From: a phage
DNA: 64,000 nt
Direction: 5' to 3' (one strand)
Sequence record: OZ346151.1
Below the pieces are notes generated by a model, which saw only the letters and a program-made list of their open reading frames with translations, had not been told where the DNA came from and did no database searches. Every line of letters begins with the position of its first letter. Within the stretch, counting starts at the first letter, position 1. The position numbers and the translations under genes were made by a program. This document shows, piece by piece, positions 13,103 through 63,337 of the stretch.

Positions 13103-14280
13103 TACTTGAAAATTCCTGGCATATCAAGTATAAGGGGGATTTCTAAAATGGATTTCCTCCTTTTGATATTTCACCGGGCTGGATATTTTAAAATTCTTAG
13201 AAAATCAGAAAATGGATCGAAAACTAAAATGGATTTTTCAGAGTAGGCGCGACAAGCTGAATAACTCATCCTATCGTTTGCACCATATTCCAGGCCACCA
13301 TTATAGATTTCCCACACATGCTAACCTCTCCCTACTAGAACTTCCTCCACTTACCCTTGACCTTCTATGGTAACAATCTAACCGCTATCTTGAAGTTGCG
13401 GTGCAGCTTTCCAGGTACTCGATCTACTTTTCATTTCAGGGCTTGGATTTTCTGAAAATTTTTCTCGATAAATTTCTCAGTACTCGATCTGTTTTTCGTT
13501 TTCTGAATCGGATTTTCTGGAAATCGTTCCGGCTCTCAACCTGAAATTTTTGGGGACGAAATCGATTTTTCGTTTTCAGAAATGGATTTTTAAAATTTCT
13601 ATATGGGAATATTTTAGTGGATACTGTTTTATAGGAAATTGTTACGGAGGGTAATTAGCATGCTAATTAAATTTATTAAATGCGAGGAGTTCTCATTTAG
13701 AATTTTGAATGATAATCATTCTCGTTTGCAGAATAACGGGCAGGCCCGGTGATTGTCTCCCGGCCCCTGTTGCCCCGGCTTGTTATTATAGTATCACACA
13801 GGACAAAGAAAGCAAGGACTTTTTGCATAAATTTTTAAATGATAATGATAACCGTTCTCATTTTATGCAGCGCCCATCCCCGGTGGTTGTCTCCCCCGTC
13901 ACCGGTGCCTGCCGTCCTTTCGATATGTATATTGTGCCACCTGGCGGGGCCGCTGTCAACACTTTTCAAAAAATTTTTCTAACCTGGTGCGCTAACCGTT
14001 GCAACCTGGCGGGGCCAGCCTGGCAGGACCTAACTGACCAGGTAGGGGAGAATGAAGGCTTGTAAACCTGGTGGGCCTATGCTACAGGATAGGTAACAAT
14101 TGAAGAGGAGGTACAAAAATGATATGATCCCCCTGGAAAATGTAGCTATTAATGACTCTGAGGCTATCGCCCTGGTTGAAAAGGCTATGGCGGGAGCGTT
14201 GGAACATAAAGAAGAGTACGAAAATGGTGGTTAACCTGGCGGGGGCGGCAGGTGGATTCTATCATAAAAATAATTTAAAA
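13103..14280. repeat. non-coding repeat-rich region (AATGGATTTT-type repeats, ~45-bp direct repeat, ACCTGGCGGGGCC repeats)
   Basis: No RBS-supported ORF; multiple short direct repeats seen by eye. Confidence 0.6.
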
Positions 14281-20949: not shown

Positions 20950-22980
20950 AGCCGCCAGATCTCAGAATTTACGTACGCTCACCAGTCTATAGCCTGCTAA
21001 GTATTTATTCCAACCATAGAATAACGGAATAGTCAATACCTGCATAAAATAATTATTCGTGTAAACTGCATAACATAAATCGGCTAGGATGTCAACATTT
21101 TTCGTAAACAGCTCGAAATTATAACGGTGAGTTATAATAAACAGAGAAATCTTTAGTCGTCTAATGTTTACTGTACATTACTATACTGACTGGAATCATT
21201 AGATGACTAAGAGAAAGATAAGAAATCATTAACAATGCAATTGTTTTATTCGTAACAATAAGGCAACTATGCAAACGGATGGCATGGCGCGACGGAGTCG
21301 CGACATAATATAAAAGCAGTAACCATCACCCCCGTGATAGTTTGTCTGCAAACTATTAATCAGATCATAGTTGCCTTGTATTTAGTTAATCATGACATAA
21401 CAAGCAAGGCAACTATAGATCTGCTAATAGTTGCCCTGCTTTTATATTATGTCATAGATTATTAGCCTGTTAATTGTTAGTCAGTCAAATCAACAACGTT
21501 ATCATTTCAGTCTTTATTGTTGTTGATCGTTATTGTTATCATGCAAACGAATGGCATGGCTTATCATTTTTGAGTAAACAATCTATACGTGAACAGTGAG
21601 GCATGCAATAGTAAGGGCGGGAATAATGAGAGTGTAAACTGTCAAGGGTAATGTCAATTATATCAATCGTGTCAGTTATGTCACCATTATGTCAGCAGAG
21701 TTTTTCTCCTCTTTGTCAAGTGCTGCATGCCCACACAAATAGTAAGAAATATAATTGTTATGTGCGTAAACAGTAACTCATGTTATCAATCCCTGTATGT
21801 ATCGCCAGTGGTGCGCATAATGGGTATTATGTTAAATTGCCCGTAATGATAATGGTTCTCACAATGATAGGTATTCTCATTCCCCCACACAAAATAGATT
21901 GCAAATGTTGTGCCACTATGTGAACGGCCTCACCTATTAATTTGCCTCACTGCCTCGATATTTGAGAATTATCATAAGAATGAGAAGTATTCCCATTTCG
22001 TCCGCCTGGCAGCACTCCAGTCGCTACGGCTCAGAACAGGGCAGAATTGTGTCCATTCAGATATTTCTGTCTGGCTCTTCAGGTCTGTGTGGGAAAAGTC
22101 CACCTCTCTGGCGGGGCATGGGGTCATGACGGGAAAATTGCAGGTCAATTAAAAAATTTACGTGGTGTATGAAGCGCTCTTCAGGTAAGGCATGTATTAT
22201 GGGATGAAACCCTCTTCAGGCAATGATATTTGTGGGTGTGATATTTGCTGGAAAGCCAGATATGACGGGACTCCCGGCGGGGCAGGGGTAGTACAGACAG
22301 GGGAAATATGGAGGATGTGGTTAGGTGAATTGATCAGACAGGTAGAGTATGGAATATGTTACAGGTATGTTAAATAGGGCGGCTGAATATCTGTAGGATT
22401 TGTGTGTAAAATCAAAGACTTAAGTGGTGTTGTGGTATTTTCTATAAATAATTCAAGTTTAATAGGTAATATTTGTCTCTATTCGCTTTGTGTGGTAAAC
22501 AGATTCAGATGAGATTGGTTTACAAGCGTATACATAATATACAAATTAAAGATACAAGAAACCCCCCTCCCCCTTCGGCTACCATTCACCTTTTCCTCTG
22601 ACTGGTACTTAAACACTTATTCAGACTCTTCAGGTTATCACCCATATATCATATGGCAGTGACTGGTGTCCTCCGGCCCCTCTTTCGTCACCCGTCCGCT
22701 TCGCCATGCTAATGCCATAGCCAATGGTTCGGTTGTTCACCCTGTTCACTCAGGTGTATCTCCATACCCCTTCAAAACGAAGAGAACAGAAAACCCGAAT
22801 TACTCGGTAAAAGAAAAGAGAAGAACTTAATTTTATCAGGATAGGCAAGAATGTCAAGGCATGACTGCTCACTAAACAAGCAAACAGTCATGTGTGGGAG
22901 GTAAGTGATTGTGGTGGTAGGAAATTTAGTTGAAAGATGTGTTATAGGTGCTTCCAGCACTTTAGCCGGGCAGCTAATTG
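20950..22980. repeat. ~2 kb non-coding, repeat-rich zone at the convergence of the plus and minus transcription blocks
   Basis: No RBS-supported ORFs; 20-bp near-identical repeat ATGCAAACG(G/A)ATGGCATGGC at 21268 and 21540; AAGGCAACTAT/ATAGTTGCC inverted copies 21258-21440; clustered TGTCA and CTCTTCAGG repeats. Confidence 0.6.
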
Positions 22981-57846: not shown

Positions 57847-58560
57847 TTAAATATACTCTGTTACATCCTTGAAGCTCGAAGGCTTCATAATCTTACCTTT
57901 ACTGTCAAGGAATATAATAACTTTATTACCGTTGTAGAACTCCTCTTTAGCAACGAAACCTTCGTAGCGACCACCAAAACGACGCTCAAGATCTTCAATC
58001 TCTAACTCTATGAGCAATTCAGTAGACATATCTGCACTGGCACCGTGAGAATATCGTAGATGGTTGATCCGTGCAAACTTGCTGTCATTAGATTTGAGAA
58101 CCTTCCGCATCATCCCACACACATCGCCGCGAAGCTGGAACAGCAAAGCTGTTGACAACTCCGCTAAGCGGTAAGCTGACGCTCTTTGCTTGGATGTGTT
58201 TTTCGCAGCGATCAGTGTATCATAGAACTCACCGATCTTGAACTTAAGACCTCGTGGATTATCAAACAGGTTTGACCACTTTTCGTGATTATCATTAACA
58301 AGATAAGCGGCATAACTTGTGACAACGTGAAGATCGCAGGCCTCTTTTAGCAGGTGATCTCCACCATCACCTTTCTCCAGCTCTTCCAAAACCTCATTGA
58401 ACTCTTCCTCAATGAAGCTAAGCTGTAATTCGAATGGTGTGTATGATTTTTTCACTTTAGCTGCCACACGGTTCCAGTTTTCCACCCAGTTGGCAGACCA
58501 AAGGTAGTTTTCAGGCTGAGACAGTTTTTCCAGGTTGTCGATCAGTTTAGTATTCAGCAT
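57847..58560 (-). CDS. hypothetical protein, possible MazG-like nucleotide pyrophosphohydrolase
   Basis: FIEEEFNEVLEELEKGD...EACD weakly resembles MazG EExxE...E..D motif. Confidence 0.35.
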   Translation of the reverse strand: MLNTKLIDNLEKLSQPENYLWSANWVENWNRVAAKVKKSYTPFELQLSFIEEEFNEVLEELEKGDGGDHLLKEACDLHVVTSYAAYLVNDNHEKWSNLFDNPRGLKFKIGEFYDTLIAAKNTSKQRASAYRLAELSTALLFQLRGDVCGMMRKVLKSNDSKFARINHLRYSHGASADMSTELLIELEIEDLERRFGGRYEGFVAKEEFYNGNKVIIFLDSKGKIMKPSSFKDVTEYI

Positions 58561-58573
58561 TAAAGGTCTCCTT

Positions 58574-59335
58574 TTAAAGTTCCATAAAGTTTTCTACAGT
58601 TTCAATAAATGCTTTATCAGAGAAAGCGTCAACAGCACCGTTAAACCATACAGGGATCCCGCGATCCTCATATTGATAAAGGTCGCTACGTGAAATGCCA
58701 CTCCCATCTGCACTCTGCGAGTCATACTTGTTTACAATCAGCAGTTTTGTGCCTTTACAAGTAGCAGGAAACAATTCCCAGTTAAAATTAATAACTGTGT
58801 TAGAACAACCTACTAGGATCACCATATCATTGCTTGTGAGAGATGTCAACAGGTCATACATGTCTGTATACTTAGGAGCAACCTCACCGAAGAACACTAC
58901 ATTGGGCTTAACCCAGGTATACTTGCCTGTATCTACCTCCGTGTATCCGATATTTTTAATTACATCATTACCTTCAGCATCTTCGTAGGTGATTTCAGGC
59001 AAATACCCGTGGACATGTAAAATATCTTCATGTTTTACACCAGCACGCTCCAGCAAATCATCTACATTGGTGGTAAGGTTGATCACACGACCAGACCAGC
59101 GGGAATACCACTCAGCGATCCGAAGATGTGCAAGGTTAGGATCAACACTGCCCAGAGCTACACGACGTGCATTGTAAAAGTCATGCACCTTATAGTAGTT
59201 CTTGGCAAAGGTGTGGATGTTGCACACCTCATCGATGCTGAAATTCTCCCACATTGCAGTGCTACCAGATCGGAAAGTGGGAATACCAGATTCAGCGCTC
59301 AAACCAGCACCGGAGATAATAATCAGTCGTCGCAT
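58574..59335 (-). CDS. Sir2-family (sirtuin-like) NAD-dependent protein, no zinc-ribbon module
   Basis: SGAGLSAESGIPTFRS, TTNVDDLLERAG and HG motifs; no CxxC pairs. Confidence 0.7.
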   Translation of the reverse strand: MRRLIIISGAGLSAESGIPTFRSGSTAMWENFSIDEVCNIHTFAKNYYKVHDFYNARRVALGSVDPNLAHLRIAEWYSRWSGRVINLTTNVDDLLERAGVKHEDILHVHGYLPEITYEDAEGNDVIKNIGYTEVDTGKYTWVKPNVVFFGEVAPKYTDMYDLLTSLTSNDMVILVGCSNTVINFNWELFPATCKGTKLLIVNKYDSQSADGSGISRSDLYQYEDRGIPVWFNGAVDAFSDKAFIETVENFMEL

Positions 59336-59343
59336 AAGTGTCC

Positions 59344-59694
59344 TCAGTAGATGTTTTGTTTAATCTCTATTCCAAACTTCTTGAATGAGTCAGCAGCAAG
59401 CATAAATTTACGAGCTGCCGATGGATTAGAAGTATGCACGAAAATAATCACGTTGTCAATAAGTGGTGGCTTTCCGAATACAAGTTTCTCCTCTAGCGCA
59501 GAGAAGCAGTCGTACCCTTCAAGCACTTCACCTAGATCATTGTCAAAATACCACTCAGATACGCGTCTGTAGAGCTTTCTCTTATCATTAAGAAAATCCA
59601 TAAACTCAGAAGAATTCTTTAGCCACAGAGCGTCTGGGAGTCCATAATCTGACGGATCTCTAAAATCATCAAGCCACACAATCCACTTCTTCAT
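59344..59694 (-). CDS. hypothetical protein
   Basis: Strand-consistent ORF. Confidence 0.5.
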   Translation of the reverse strand: MKKWIVWLDDFRDPSDYGLPDALWLKNSSEFMDFLNDKRKLYRRVSEWYFDNDLGEVLEGYDCFSALEEKLVFGKPPLIDNVIIFVHTSNPSAARKFMLAADSFKKFGIEIKQNIY

Positions 59695-60626
59695 TGCATA
59701 TAGTCCTCGTTGTGGAAATAGTAGTCCAGTATCTCACGACGCTCCTGCTCTAATAAGCAATTCCACACATCTTCTGTATAGTTGCTACGAATAAATTTTA
59801 CCATACCGTAAAACTCTTCGTCAACACGTTTAAAGATATCATCATCCCAAATCTTCCAAGCTTTACCCCTCATTACTGCCTTCCGTGCCAGATAGTATGG
59901 AGACTTGATCTTCAGCTGCAGATCATAAGGGTAGTAAGGCTTACGAATCATATACCCTTCACCTCTTGTTTCTGCAGCTAATTCTTTTGCATAGCTGAAC
60001 GGAATTTCACGCACAGTGTTAGGACGTTTTGCACCAAGGTATTTGGCAATCCCATCTAAAGCTGCTTCTGGTAGCATTATTCCAGAATCATTATATCTGC
60101 AACCTATCAAATATGCGCCATGGTCTTCTTGAACAATATGCGGATCTGAAGGGTGACAAATTTCAAACATGAATGTCATGTTTTCATTGCCCATAACCTT
60201 CTTGATAAGATCTAAATTACCACATTGCTCTTGGATGGTTTCCTTTGCAAGGTTACAATATGGAGAATCAAGAGACCCGGTTGTTGAGAACAATAGGTCA
60301 CCTTTATGAGATGATACCACACCAAGGAATCCGTTCTTTTTCTCTACCGCAGTCACAAGCTTATTGTCAGGCAGGTTGGTGGAGTTTTCTCCCAAGTTAA
60401 ACACTTTTGTGAAGGGCCATGCCACAACATTTCCTTCATTACCTACAACAATGCCTCGGCACTCCAGTAAACGAGGGGACAAATGCCATAAATTGTTGTA
60501 AAATACTTTTCTAGCATATTTATAGATCTTTAACCCGAGATCTGGGTAATACCTACTGGTTACAAGACCTTTGTCAACTAGGTCGTCTGCATTAAAATAC
60601 TTCATTATATGTTCCTCATTTGTCAT
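59691..60626 (-). CDS. RNA ligase (T4 Rnl1-like)
   Basis: LLECRGIVVG resembles T4 Rnl1 ALECRGIMF; motif I EKKNGF (KxDG/KxNG); divergent from pnk. Confidence 0.7.
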   Translation of the reverse strand: MTNEEHIMKYFNADDLVDKGLVTSRYYPDLGLKIYKYARKVFYNNLWHLSPRLLECRGIVVGNEGNVVAWPFTKVFNLGENSTNLPDNKLVTAVEKKNGFLGVVSSHKGDLLFSTTGSLDSPYCNLAKETIQEQCGNLDLIKKVMGNENMTFMFEICHPSDPHIVQEDHGAYLIGCRYNDSGIMLPEAALDGIAKYLGAKRPNTVREIPFSYAKELAAETRGEGYMIRKPYYPYDLQLKIKSPYYLARKAVMRGKAWKIWDDDIFKRVDEEFYGMVKFIRSNYTEDVWNCLLEQERREILDYYFHNEDYMQ

Positions 60627-60669
60627 TTTGTCAGTCTATCCTGCCACACAAATAACCTAGTGTCAACAC

Positions 60670-60698
60670 TTGAAATTAACAAAACAGTTAGGTATACT
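60670..60698 (+). promoter_or_regulatory. sigma70-like promoter in divergent intergenic region
   Basis: TTGAAA, 17-bp spacer, TATACT. Confidence 0.5.
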
Positions 60699-60726
60699 AC
60701 CGTTGAAATTAAAACGGAGGGTCGCT

Positions 60727-61137
60727 ATGTCTAAAATGCTATATATCGTGCGTGGTCTACCAGGGTCTGGCAAATCAACACTGGCAAATGAGCTATCTTT
60801 AGAGGGTCTGTATCCACATTTTGAGAACGACATGTTCTGGTATGACGATGACGGCAATTACAACTGGGATGCAAGTAAAGTAACACTCGCAGCAAAATGG
60901 TGCAAAGATAACGTAGAAGATATGATGCGTATGGGATACGACCGTATCGTGGTAAGTAATACGTTTACAAAAGAAAAACATGTGCAGGAATATGTTGACA
61001 TGGCAATCACTCACGGGTATAGTTATACCGTGATCGTGGTTGAAAACCGCCACGGTAATAAAAGCATTCATGATGTTCCAGACAAGGTTGTGGATCGTAT
61101 GGAACGCCAGCTTAAAAACTGCATTAAACTTAAATGA
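60727..61137 (+). CDS. polynucleotide 5'-kinase (P-loop kinase, T4 Pnk kinase-domain-like)
   Basis: SD GGAGGG; Walker A GLPGSGKST; ~136 aa; next to RNA ligase and phosphatase. Confidence 0.65.
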   Translation: MSKMLYIVRGLPGSGKSTLANELSLEGLYPHFENDMFWYDDDGNYNWDASKVTLAAKWCKDNVEDMMRMGYDRIVVSNTFTKEKHVQEYVDMAITHGYSYTVIVVENRHGNKSIHDVPDKVVDRMERQLKNCIKLK

Positions 61138-61144
61138 GGAATGT

Positions 61145-61699
61145 ATGAAATACTTTGTAACAAGCGACACACACTTTCTCCACCAGCGGGTCATGGAGTT
61201 TGATTCATGTCAAAAACACAGATCTCAGTATGATCACAATCTTGACAGTATGAATGCAGGAATCATCGCCGAGTGGAACTCTGTTGTGTCACCTGCAGAC
61301 ACTGTGTTCCACTTGGGAGATATTGCGTGCACTAATGATAAGAATATCAACAACTTACTTCCAGATATTCTAAATATGTTGAACGGACATATTATTCTTG
61401 TTCGTGGCAACCATGACACAAGGACGACTGTCAGAATTATGAAAGAGTTCGGTCATGAGGTTGTAGATTATTACGAGCTTCGCCACAACAAGAATTTGAT
61501 CTGTATGAGCCATTACCAGTTTGCAAAGTGGAACAGAAAGCCTCACGGATCAGTCCAACTGTTCGGTCATGCTCACGGAACCACACAACAGTTGTTTGGC
61601 AGGCAGCTTGATGTCGGTTGGGATGTGTGGGGGAGACTCTTACCATTAGAAGAGGCATACCGTATTGCAATGAGTTTTGATATTGACAGCAGGGAGTAA
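61145..61699 (+). CDS. calcineurin-like metallophosphoesterase (putative 2',3'/3'-phosphatase)
   Basis: SD GAGGA; motifs SDTHF, GDIAC, GNHD, HAHG. Confidence 0.65.
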   Translation: MKYFVTSDTHFLHQRVMEFDSCQKHRSQYDHNLDSMNAGIIAEWNSVVSPADTVFHLGDIACTNDKNINNLLPDILNMLNGHIILVRGNHDTRTTVRIMKEFGHEVVDYYELRHNKNLICMSHYQFAKWNRKPHGSVQLFGHAHGTTQQLFGRQLDVGWDVWGRLLPLEEAYRIAMSFDIDSRE

Positions 61700-61746
61700 T
61701 CCCTGCTATTTTAAAGAAAATTGCCACACAAGGAGAATCAGGAGAT

Positions 61747-62097
61747 ATGAAAGATGGGGATAAGCTGCTATATCTTAAAGTCCCCCTTGAAATACTATCT
61801 ATGTCAAAAGTTTTGAATGACACAACTGGGGAGGTTGTTGTTCTTGACTTGTATGACAAGATCGTATACTGCTACCTGCACAACTGGTATAAGCTTGGAG
61901 GAAATTCACGCTTCACACCAAGCACAAGGAAAATTGCAGCAGATGTTGGGATAAAGAAAACAAAAGCAGCAGCGTGCGTTAAAACTTTAGAATGTGCAGG
62001 AGTGGTTGAAACATCCACACAAGGGAGAGGTAAAAGATGCACATTTTCCAAAGTTTTGCCACCAGAAGAAGTTATTCGGATGTCAACAACTGGTTAG
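61747..62097 (+). CDS. putative winged-helix DNA-binding protein (initiator or repressor)
   Basis: SD AGGAGA; wHTH-like segment RKIAADVGIKKTKAAACVKTLECAGVVE; followed directly by palindrome array. Confidence 0.5.
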   Translation: MKDGDKLLYLKVPLEILSMSKVLNDTTGEVVVLDLYDKIVYCYLHNWYKLGGNSRFTPSTRKIAADVGIKKTKAAACVKTLECAGVVETSTQGRGKRCTFSKVLPPEEVIRMSTTG

Positions 62098-62173
62098 ACC
62101 AGTAAAAACTTAAATATCTGTACTATAAGGATTCGTATGTTTTATGTTCGCCATGGAACGGATACTATTAACT

Positions 62174-62252
62174 GTCCGTGATACGGACACTACTGTCCGT
62201 CACGCGGACACATCTGCCCGTAATACGGACACTAACTGTCCGTGATACGGAC
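62174..62252. repeat. four phased 15-bp palindromes (iteron/operator array)
   Basis: GTCCGTGATACGGAC (62174), GTCCGTCACGCGGAC (62195), GCCCGTAATACGGAC (62216), GTCCGTGATACGGAC (62238); spacing 21-22 bp. Confidence 0.75.
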
Positions 62253-62261
62253 ACATAAAGA

Positions 62262-62385
62262 ATATAACTAAAATAACTAAATAATAAAAAATAAAAGATC
62301 TAGTACTTATGGTACTAAGTACATATACTTAACTTATGTAGAATATACTAGATCCTAAGTACCATGTTTTAAATTTATTACTTAC
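62262..62385. repeat. AT-rich region with large imperfect palindrome
   Basis: AGATCTAGTACTTATGGTACTAAGTAC...TACTAGATCCTAAGTACCATG inverted symmetry. Confidence 0.55.
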
Positions 62386-62660
62386 TATGGGCAGTGTCGG
62401 CCCTTCATTGGCACTCGCCTACGAGGGGGCGAGATGCCGGGCCTCCTTGGCGCACACAATAACAGAAGTTCATACATGCAGGTCTGTTAACATGTGTGGG
62501 AGCGAAGCGATAGCGCAGGCCAAAGGCCGAGCACTGATGTGGACCACCGACGAAAGCTTGCCAGCGCCGTAAGGAGTCGGTTGAGAGTCTCCCGCGCGAG
62601 CTTGGATGAAGTTTATGTGTGGAAACTGACAAGAAGGCCCCTAAATCGCTCCACAGCTAT
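62386..62660 (+). ncRNA. candidate structured non-coding RNA (GC-rich, ORF-poor)
   Basis: Visibly GC-richer than flanks; several short stems (e.g. CTCGCC...GGCGAG); no RBS-supported ORF; strand undetermined. Confidence 0.3.
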
Positions 62661-62758
62661 ATAAACTATACCAGGTAATGCAATCGCACCAGTTTGATAG
62701 AAAAGCTCGTTACAAAGCGATACAGTGAGTTTTTCTATAACTTGAAGAGGAGGCAGCT

Positions 62759-63337
62759 ATGGGTTCACGCAAAGATGACCGTGAAAAGATTGCAAAACGT
62801 TATCAGAATGAAGAACAGATGGAGAAAACTTTCAAGTGGAAGCCAGGTTTCCAGCGTAATCATTCTAACGCTCGTGATCGTAAGCATCCGGATAAGTGGC
62901 TAACACCGCCAAATGATGGCATGCAGGTTGGGGATGAGAAGGAGATGTCGCCTGGAAAAGATGGCAACTACATTCGCACTAAGGACGCTGGTCCAAAGGA
63001 TGACAGCTATCTTGTAGATAAGGTTCTTGATGGTATCAATGTAGATGTTGACACTGCACGAAACCTTTTTCTTGGGTGGTATCGCACAGGTTTTTTCGAC
63101 ATCAAGGCTATTCGTCGTGTTTGTGATATTAAAAAGTCTGCATATGATGACGACTCGTTACATCGCACCCTGAGACAATATTCAGAAAGATATGGTCATC
63201 CGGTTATCACTCTTGACGATGTTAACGAAGTGATGTATCATGCAGAGGTTGTTGCAGGAAGATTCGGTGATGCATATCTTGATATCCTTTCTGCAAAGGA
63301 TGAGGTAATGTTAAATAAGATTTACTATGAACGCTGA
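62759..63337 (+). CDS. hypothetical protein
   Basis: SD GAAGAGGAGG before ATG. Confidence 0.55.
   Translation: MGSRKDDREKIAKRYQNEEQMEKTFKWKPGFQRNHSNARDRKHPDKWLTPPNDGMQVGDEKEMSPGKDGNYIRTKDAGPKDDSYLVDKVLDGINVDVDTARNLFLGWYRTGFFDIKAIRRVCDIKKSAYDDDSLHRTLRQYSERYGHPVITLDDVNEVMYHAEVVAGRFGDAYLDILSAKDEVMLNKIYYER

Follow-up and report, generated by a model that had tools for sequence, protein, structure and literature searches.

Is the non-coding DNA that follows a small winged-helix gene in the phage sequence record OZ346151.1 a replication origin, or is it a control region with several operators? The gene, gp075, lies in the 64,000-nucleotide stretch that we analysed as a whole (the window) and is followed by an array of four palindromes and an AT-rich tract. 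A first-pass annotation, made from the letters alone, had read this succession of initiator gene, iterons and AT-rich element as origin-like, and had offered a multi-operator region as the alternative. Every computational test run, whether of homology, of site clustering, of duplex stability or of selection, favoured the origin-like reading, and the operator alternative was weakened. In our judgement the locus probably serves Vequintavirus as a replication origin of the iteron type or, failing that, as the place of assembly of an origin-binding protein.

The window comes from a Vequintavirus (rV5-like) coliphage, a genus of myoviruses with genomes of about 137-138 kb. Over positions 61700-62760 it is 99.9% identical to Escherichia phage isim, and 119 Vequintavirus records are 90-99% identical to it. 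The authors of the rV5 genome paper sought an origin by GC and AT skew, found only changes linked to the direction of transcription and defined no origin (PMC3606486), so that no established origin conflicts with the one proposed here. A literature search on a Vequintavirus origin, on a satellite and on the plasmid accessions discussed below returned nothing relevant apart from that paper.

The winged-helix-like open reading frame of the first-pass annotation corresponds to rV5 gp075, and its winged-helix character is borne out by near-threshold Pfam matches and by a structural model. In Pfam the protein scores 27.4 bits for DUF6945 (PF22182; cut-off 28) and 24.5 bits for HTH_36 (cut-off 25); both domains are matched by all 20 of the 20 family members, with a best E-value of 1.6e-12 for DUF6945. 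It falls in PHROG 12838 (E = 5e-80) and has weaker matches to three other PHROGs; every one of these families bears the label 'replication initiation protein'. By sequence, its closest relative of known structure is PDB entry 4RO3 (E = 3e-6 for the single sequence, about 28% identity), the amino-terminal domain (NTD) of RepA from the Vibrio cholerae satellite PLE, a RepA_N-type initiator (Barth et al. 2020, PMC7145576). A 20-member profile matches 4RO3 at E = 1.3e-14 over residues 5-91, nearly the whole domain, and the next matches, CodY- and SlyA-type regulators, have E-values of 1e-3 or worse. Among curated regulator families gp075 has only sub-threshold matches (16 bits against a cut-off of 27 for the CodY helix-turn-helix), and its NCBIfam scores are far below the cut-offs.

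The fold leads to the same relatives. An AlphaFold2 (AF2) model based on an alignment of 20 sequences has a predicted local distance difference test score (pLDDT) of 80.9 and the topology beta-beta-H-H-H-beta-beta-H; with a five-sequence alignment the pLDDT was 45 and the model unusable, and the prediction was repeated after the family had been widened. In a Foldseek comparison with the PDB, ranks 1-6 are all NTDs of RepA_N-type initiators: 4RO3, 4PQL (pSK41 RepA NTD), 4PT7 (pTZ2162 RepA NTD) and 5KBJ (a RepA-iteron DNA complex). gp075 is thus homologous to the iteron-binding NTD of RepA_N-type initiators (PLE RepA; pSK41 and pTZ2162 RepA). It ends directly after the wing and one helix, and is the equivalent of the NTD without linker or carboxy-terminal domain (CTD).

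The four palindromes reported at first pass are present and are longer than first described, 17 bp each (Table 1). The first and the fourth are perfect palindromes; the second and the third each contain a single mismatch. Their start-to-start spacing of 21, 21 and 22 bp agrees with the two helical turns claimed for them. Within each palindrome the 7-bp half-sites are 10 bp, or one turn, apart from centre to centre; as the palindromes themselves are two turns apart, all eight half-sites lie on one face of the helix. The palindromes lie 76 bp 3' of the gp075 stop codon, and their array is the top tandem repeat of the window, with a score of 110-126 against 42 for the next. The window contains nine matches to the palindrome with up to three mismatches, compared with 1.67 +/- 1.12 in shuffled sequence (none of 100 shuffles reaches nine), and its matches with no or one mismatch are solely the four array copies. 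No further site with no or one mismatch was found in the window and in positions 1-98.5 kb of phage isim, which by alignment coordinates should jointly span about the whole genome of ~138 kb. The sites therefore form one genomic cluster and not a dispersed regulon, which favours an origin over operators.

Four palindromes are found in most Vequintavirus genomes, two in phage navn (L112) and six in O157 typing phage 14 (L111). The copy number changes in 42-bp steps of two units, always in the 21-22-bp register. As phages with two, four and six sites are viable, the function of the array thus tolerates two to six sites, as is usual for iteron arrays. We regard the units as putative iterons, that is, as predicted binding sites of gp075 dimers that would all occupy the same side of the DNA.

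The AT-rich segment said to follow the array is likewise confirmed, and it is the weakest duplex of the 64 kb at every scale tried. Its nearest-neighbour duplex energy reaches z = 4.4, 5.1 and 5.5 at scales of 60, 100 and 130 bp, with the runner-up in the window at z = 3.6. The tract includes two tandem copies of the 9-mer ATAACTAAA at 62264-62281, an A-tract of variable length at 62285-62295 and two GATC sites (62297 and 62351) within its symmetric arms. Of the large imperfect palindrome described in this segment, the arms exist, with shorter arms AGATCTAGTA / TACTAGATCC of 11 nt that are 91% complementary. Its fold does not go beyond chance: the single-strand hairpin is no better than that of shuffled sequences (z = -1.6; 15 of 200 shuffles fold equally well). 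We therefore rejected the inverted repeat as a cruciform or hairpin, and the emphasis that the first-pass annotation had placed on it is not statistically supported. The sequence of the repeat is highly conserved, although its hairpin energy is at chance level.

Conservation of the locus was measured as nucleotide diversity (pi) in an alignment of 13 Vequintavirus genomes covering 60.9-64.0 kb. At third codon positions of three flanking genes pi is 0.074-0.081, and in the 71-bp spacer between gp075 and the array it is 0.12. Diversity drops abruptly at position 62169, where a hypervariable segment of 20 bp (62149-62168) abuts the conserved array, to 0.023 in the array (62169-62254), 0.004 in 62255-62295 (one of 41 columns variable) and 0.015 in 62296-62365; in the GC-rich segment after the AT-rich tract it is 0.045-0.048. 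The array and the tract are accordingly 3-20 times less variable than synonymous sites. Compared with third positions and spacer, these low values identify the array and the AT-rich tract as the most constrained DNA of the neighbourhood, under strong purifying selection.

The locus lies just past the point where transcription diverges, as had been noted at first pass: the divergence is at ~60.63-60.73 kb, 1.1-1.5 kb to the left, and the locus is inside the rightward block, at the head of ~50 kb of tRNA, terminase and structural genes. Just 5' of gp075 is a promoter-like site at the position of the 'Sigma70-type promoter P76' of the rV5 record. A consensus scan of both strands from 61712 to 63000 found no other sigma-70-like promoter and none overlapping the array, and the list of promoters annotated in rV5 has none at the equivalent of this interval. 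Operators that overlap a controlled promoter of the sigma-70 type, as would mark a winged-helix repressor, are thus not seen at this locus, though a phage-specific promoter may be present. The cumulative GC/AT skew has its minimum at ~60.6 kb, coincident with the switch in gene orientation; it follows the direction of transcription and was set aside as uninformative about an origin. Taken together, the homology of gp075 to initiators, the single cluster of sites, the extreme and conserved AT-rich tract and the lack of an overlapping sigma-70-like promoter favour an origin.

A replication origin of this kind might work as follows. gp075 would be made early from its sigma-70 promoter, and a dimer would bind each palindrome. 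Lying on one face of the DNA, the four dimers would oligomerise, as RepA_N NTDs do, and the bent or wrapped complex would pass stress to the AT-rich tract, which would open. The T7 gp4-like primase-helicase of the phage, its Pif1/Dda-like SF1B helicase, or both, could then load on the single strands; both enzymes have been noted in rV5, the second as Pif1/RecD-like (PMC3606486). Because gp075 has no carboxy-terminal recruiting domain, loading would require either direct contact with the small gp075 domain or a structure-specific route. Such a route could be transcription through the origin from the upstream promoter, which would both express gp075 and be read through the region, or it could use the GC-rich element described below as a primer RNA or a single-strand initiation signal.

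We asked how widely gp075 and its palindromes occur together. Single-sequence protein searches with gp075, word-indexed as well as exhaustive, recovered almost only Vequintavirus copies. When 1.84 billion representatives were scanned exhaustively with HMMER, eight matches were obtained, of which P0009 and P0011 alone seem to be genuine distant relatives; P0008 shares solely the generic HTH_36 helix-turn-helix. A profile of the distant relatives and the phage homologues found 21 proteins. The gp075 family is very narrow. Its members are 106-116 aa long in Vequintavirus and in Erwinia Henunavirus, 136 aa in Pseudomonas phage phiPMW and 182-217 aa in metagenomic phages. Tails are present in the members of 182-217 aa. 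The metagenomic members of 194-217 aa have acidic tails, most of them ending in ...D-x-E/A-P-F (longer members with acidic tails are P0009, P0011, P0015, P0018 and P0019), and the 136-aa members of the phiPMW type end in an acidic ...D-M-E-x-W-I (D-M-E-E/D-W-I); gp075 and the Erwinia phage proteins have no tail. The C-terminal tip of single-stranded DNA-binding protein (SSB) is a protein-recruiting element. The P-F tails resemble this tip, and the likeness suggests recruitment of SSB-binding replication proteins.

Wherever genomic context was available, the homologue gene was at or close to an intergenic region between divergent genes and had RNA-repair or replication genes as neighbours; on contig L120 the intergenic region separates an arm with a Toprim/DnaB_C primase-helicase from an arm with DNA_pol_A. 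The distant homologues of four other phage lineages stand beside palindromes with a 3-nt spacer and different sequences: each lineage has one recurrent palindrome of its own beside the gene, with arms of 5-7 bp. It is GGACA-AAA-TGTCC in phiPMW (three copies), TGCTCA-ATT-TGAGCA in the Erwinia phage, where a degenerate second copy lies 23 bp away and AT-rich DNA precedes, and GTACCT-NNN-AGGTAC in three metagenomic contigs (two or three copies). These palindromes are often beside AT-rich DNA. Single palindromes with 6-bp arms and one mismatch are common by chance, with ~5 per 2 kb per spacer in a neutral census; what we counted as evidence is the recurrence of one palindrome per lineage together with the shared spacer, not single palindromes. 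Lineage-specific palindromes of the same geometry are what would be expected if a dimeric winged-helix protein had co-evolved with its sites. In these relatives the family protein probably sits over its own promoter region, where binding would double as autoregulation. As an observation on gene context, an RNA-repair-like gene set surrounds the divergence point of the window (57847-61699), with a Sir2-like protein and a T4 Rnl1-like RNA ligase on one strand and an AAA_33 kinase (polynucleotide-kinase-like) and a metallophosphoesterase on the other; kinase and ligase genes are paired with the gp075 homologue again in phiPMW and on contig L119.

Several of these results weigh against an origin. 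The scores of gp075 fall narrowly short of the Pfam cut-offs for both DUF6945 and HTH_36, Pfam RepA_N (PF06970) gives no match at E <= 1, and the protein is a DNA-binding domain alone, without the CTD by which RepA_N initiators recruit the replisome, which leaves the largest hole in the proposed mechanism. Neither DnaA boxes nor sites for integration host factor (IHF) occur above background at the locus, and the sign change of the GC skew, 1.1-1.5 kb off and linked to transcription, lends no independent support. The sites of the relatives lie in promoter-bearing divergent intergenic regions, which fits operators as well as origins, and those of the metagenomic lineage are ~110-120 bp apart, not tandem. 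Phages with T7-like replisomes can, moreover, start replication from promoters or by recombination, with no dedicated initiator.

The rival that survives best is local transcriptional control, with gp075 as a winged-helix repressor or activator and the palindromes as its operators or as a roadblock. The protein could act on transcription that starts at the early promoters P80 and P76 and continues through the non-coding RNA further downstream into the small genes, the tRNA cluster and the late genes, or on a phage-specific promoter concealed within the AT-rich DNA. Most depositors name gp075 'putative transcriptional regulator', the name 'replication initiation protein' being used in RefSeq and some recent records, and the protein has weak similarity to the winged helix-turn-helix domains of CodY, MarR, GntR and LexA type. 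The cognate palindromes of Erwinia phage pEp_SNUABM_01, phiPMW and the metagenomic contigs are in the promoter-bearing region 5' of the gene, in the Erwinia phage immediately before the ribosome-binding site; the locus stands at the head of the large block of late-type genes named above, and promoters too are typically AT-rich. In our phage, however, the array is 3' of its own gene in an interval devoid of sigma-70-like promoters, and the genome has a single cluster of sites. The best relatives by sequence and fold are initiators, repressors being worse by at least 11 orders of magnitude in the profile comparison. The 130 bp of extreme, conserved AT-rich DNA exceed the needs of a promoter, and it is not obvious what a repressor would do with the SSB-tip-like tails of the longer relatives. 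We consider a local control region unlikely, yet the main rival. Many Rep proteins autoregulate, so that the two roles are not exclusive, and a local regulatory role could coexist with that of an origin.

The AT-rich tract is followed by a GC-rich non-coding structured element, which may be linked to the origin. A protein-coding reading of this region (rV5 gp074 and two open reading frames) was rejected, since the frames are broken in relatives and variable sites are spread 11/13/11 over the codon positions. Rfam, searched with the interval 58-64 kb and with the homologue from the plasmids, gave chance-level matches only (rli43, 22.5 bits against a gathering score of 100), and a search for tRNA and tmRNA genes in 60-64 kb found none. 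Outside Vequintavirus, only circular E. coli 'plasmids' of 13.2-13.7 kb were found to carry the element; they come from five unrelated isolates, and the assembly of one is a trimer of 39.6 kb. An 18-mer exact scan of genome contigs for the GC-rich core gave 95 matches, essentially all of them chance matches in GC-rich genomes; two of these, L058 (Kosakonia) and the viral contig L011, proved unrelated on inspection.

Two blocks of the element are kept between the phage and plasmid copies, and the differences within them are compensatory. From phage to plasmid, the 5' hairpin changes from GGCA/TGCC to GTCA/TGAC and from CTCGCC/GGCGAG to CTCTCC/GGAGAG, and the 3' module from ACCGAC/GTCGGT to GCTGCC/GGCAGC. 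Three of the six pairs of the 3' stem are changed on both sides, and two phage lineages have G-U intermediates; all double changes fall on the single split between phage and plasmid and represent few independent events. The stem is 100% paired in 13 distinct sequences, whereas slid controls pair in 28-54% of cells, and RNAalifold finds the same stem independently. The G-U intermediates fit a + strand RNA or a + strand single-stranded DNA, and by this covariation the element probably acts as one of the two.

The 13-kb elements (Table 1) encode a major capsid protein, a tape measure protein, further proteins of the tail and neck, and a winged-helix protein of 303 aa with weak similarity to replication-initiator PHROGs. 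Their capsid protein is at most 22% identical to phage proteins, the nearest being from myoviruses of 140-150 kb. The GC-rich element is all that they share with the window. They contain iterons of their own, CGGTAAATATTTCC four or five times, and ATCAAnATATCAAnnTGATATA three times in DNA of 26% GC; the GC-rich element lies ~350 bp beyond these iterons, upstream of a Rep-like operon. The order of modules (iterons, AT-rich DNA, structured element) is the same in phage and plasmid, the latter being a replicon in which an origin has to exist, and this analogy lends modest independent support to the phage locus as a replicon control region. Borrowing of gp075 by the 13-kb elements was rejected, as they have no TGTCCGT/ACGGACA half-site. 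Possibly they represent a family of extrachromosomal satellites or mini-phages that has not been described; no paper on them was found in the literature search. It is conceivable, if rather improbable, that the phage origin is composite: a RepA_N-like binder without CTD would open the DNA, the GC-rich element would prime or load, and the 13-kb elements would be satellites that use rV5-like replication or packaging machinery through it.

The shared element also raises the question of packaging. gp075 might be a repeat binder of the small-terminase kind, and the region, perhaps with the GC-rich element, a pac site copied by satellites. Small terminases are small winged-helix proteins that bind repeats, as lambda Nu1 does at the R sites of cosB, and the annotations of these phages include no small terminase. 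Satellites often copy the packaging signals of their helpers, and the only DNA shared with the capsid-encoding elements adjoins the array. The genome is circularly permuted, which implies packaging of the pac type (PMC3606486). Against this, gp075 has no terminase-family match in Pfam, PHROGs or NCBIfam and is homologous to RepA-type initiator domains. The gene for the large terminase subunit is ~4.4 kb downstream, beyond seven tRNA genes and the spanins, the 13-kb elements lack the half-sites, and the compensatory changes in the shared element point to a folded single strand and not to a duplex recognition site. We regard a packaging start site as very improbable. Least credible of all is a non-functional or recombinogenic tandem duplication beside a winged-helix gene by coincidence: the 42-bp steps between isolates are those of slippage-prone repeats, and several annotators record the repeats solely as Tandem Repeats Finder hits, but every unit is internally palindromic, the variability of the array is lower by a factor of 3-5 than that of synonymous-type sites and of the spacer beside it, and analogous palindromes stand beside homologous genes in unrelated phages.

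Table 1. Features of the gp075 locus (positions in the window) and accessions of the 13-kb plasmid-like elements
Feature	Position	Strand	Remarks
Sigma-70-type promoter-like site	61683..61712	+	TTGACA-18-TATTTT with TG; 10/12 consensus matches, extended -10; just 5' of the winged-helix gene
Winged-helix protein gene gp075	61747..62097	+	116 aa; stand-alone homologue of the RepA_N / DUF6945 iteron-binding NTD, no C-terminal effector domain
Spacer between gene and array	62098..62168	.	62098-62148 conserved, 62149-62168 hypervariable
Palindrome array, putative iterons	62169..62254	.	four 21-22-bp units, each with a 17-bp palindrome TGTCCGT-NNN-ACGGACA (62173-62189, 62194-62210, 62215-62231, 62237-62253)
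AT-rich tract, candidate DNA-unwinding element	62255..62385	.	20% GC; least stable duplex of the window
Imperfect inverted repeat	62285..62380	.	25-nt arms 62285-62309 / 62356-62380, 72% complementary
GC-rich non-coding structured element	62387..62660	+	54-63% GC, surroundings 42% GC; directly 3' of the AT-rich tract
5' hairpin of GC-rich element	62398-62443		
3' module of GC-rich element	62539-62595		stem 62546-62551 / 62576-62581
Conserved hairpin	62697..62738	+	12-nt arms, 92% complementary; directly 5' of the gp073 ribosome-binding site
gp073 gene	62759..63337	+	192 aa, PHROG 12226; downstream end of the 660-bp non-coding region
13-kb elements			L008/L010 NZ_CP020521.1; L009 NZ_CP043822.1; L108 CP148565.1; L109 NZ_CP035869.1; L110 NZ_CP178698.1

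Further repeats were observed in and beside the non-coding region. GTAC occurs five times in 62098-62400 (62120, 62303, 62312, 62319 and 62359), compared with 0.58 expected from its frequency in the window. The copies are within KGTACTWAG-like motifs in both orientations, and a long-range inverted repeat with such motifs (62107-62124 / 62318-62335) brackets the array; the GTAC motifs may be the site of a second protein. The hairpin before gp073 is nearly invariant in an alignment of three genomes and may be a translational or processing signal. Besides the iterons, the only notable tandem repeats of the window are an array of period 9 at 21651-21694 (ATGTCAATT, 4.7 copies) and a 12-mer at 13448-13475. 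Eighteen related records of 'Campylobacter phages' (MG0656xx), with C. jejuni given as host, share 94-99% identity with E. coli rV5-like phages at the locus, and their host label looks doubtful; one 'Campylobacter phage' record (A141) is linearised exactly at the first iteron.

The rV5-like phages are among the most often isolated coliphages, and typing sets, the BASEL collection and therapy cocktails all include them. With a concrete candidate of 220 bp (62169-62385) and a named, putative binding protein, their origin can be put directly to the test, and the candidate would offer a handle for engineering, in the form of origin plasmids amplified on infection and of replication-defective mutants. 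If the origin is real, its mechanism is conventional. The RepA_N/DUF6945 initiator domain, known from plasmids of Gram-positive bacteria and from a single Vibrio satellite, is extended by gp075 to large virulent enterobacterial myoviruses. Its form here is stripped down, and one may ask how helicase loading would be achieved when the recruiting domain is missing. The structured element common to the 13-kb capsid-encoding plasmids may, in addition, point to an unrecognised relationship between phage and satellite.

Among known systems the closest is PLE. Its RepA binds a semi-palindromic iteron at the PLE origin, as shown by electrophoretic mobility shift assay and deletion genetics; the iterons of RepA_N replicons are typically semi-palindromic direct repeats, and RepA-driven replication of PLE depends on an SF1B helicase of the phage (PMC7145576). 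PLE RepA is nearest to gp075 in both sequence and fold (Foldseek ranks 1-2), with DUF6945 in both proteins; both loci have semi-palindromic repeats in a non-coding region. PLE replication relies on a phage replisome that includes an SF1B helicase, and the rV5-like phages likewise encode a helicase of Pif1/RecD type. PLE RepA has a CTD, whereas gp075 is the NTD alone. PLE is a satellite that borrows the replisome of ICP1, whereas gp075 belongs to the lytic phage itself. The arms are 13 bp long in PLE repeat 3 and 7 bp here, and the iteron sequences differ.

In the RepA_N plasmids, the 120-residue NTD of pSK41 RepA binds four Rep boxes and oligomerises, and the CTD, which binds DnaG, is essential for replication (PMC5703833). 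The NTDs of pSK41 and pTZ2162 RepA (4PQL, 4PT7, 5KBJ; Foldseek ranks 3-6) have the same winged-helix fold as gp075, and the four tandem Rep boxes of pSK41, with their internal inverted repeats, resemble the four palindromes here. The plasmid origins are inside the rep gene, whereas our array is 3' of the gene; the plasmid proteins carry the essential DnaG-binding CTD that gp075 lacks, and they are from Firmicutes, with Gram-positive hosts, and belong to PF06970, which gp075 does not match. Measured by what defines RepA_N/DUF6945 systems, the locus has the fold and the tandem palindromic iterons, lacks the CTD and comes within a bit of the DUF6945 cut-off. It also has the iteron-theta layout, with phased sites directly beside DNA of low stability.

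The origin of phage lambda has four dyad-symmetric iterons about two turns apart, bound by dimers of the winged-helix NTD of O, then an adjacent AT-rich unwinding region and, after it, an inverted repeat. This layout matches our locus feature for feature, and in both an upstream promoter is available for transcription through the origin or near it. O belongs to another initiator family, its origin is inside the O gene, and its C-terminal domain recruits P-DnaB, whereas the present phage brings its own primase-helicase; the AT-rich tract is here about three times longer. As gp075 has no Phage_rep_O match in Pfam and the array is outside the gene, membership in the O family was rejected, and the likeness is one of layout only. 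The same is true of R1 oriR with its G-site, ColE1 RNA II and the R-loops of T4 oriF/oriG, origins in which an opening site is joined to a single-strand or RNA priming element downstream: our structured element, conserved by base-pairing, lies 130 bp beyond the iterons, past the AT-rich tract, has no sequence or Rfam similarity to these priming elements and may have nothing to do with replication. The locus is thus likely to be an origin of a familiar kind, iteron-type with a RepA_N-like binder, that is new for a phage group without a described origin, and its unusual feature is a binder reduced to the DNA-binding domain.

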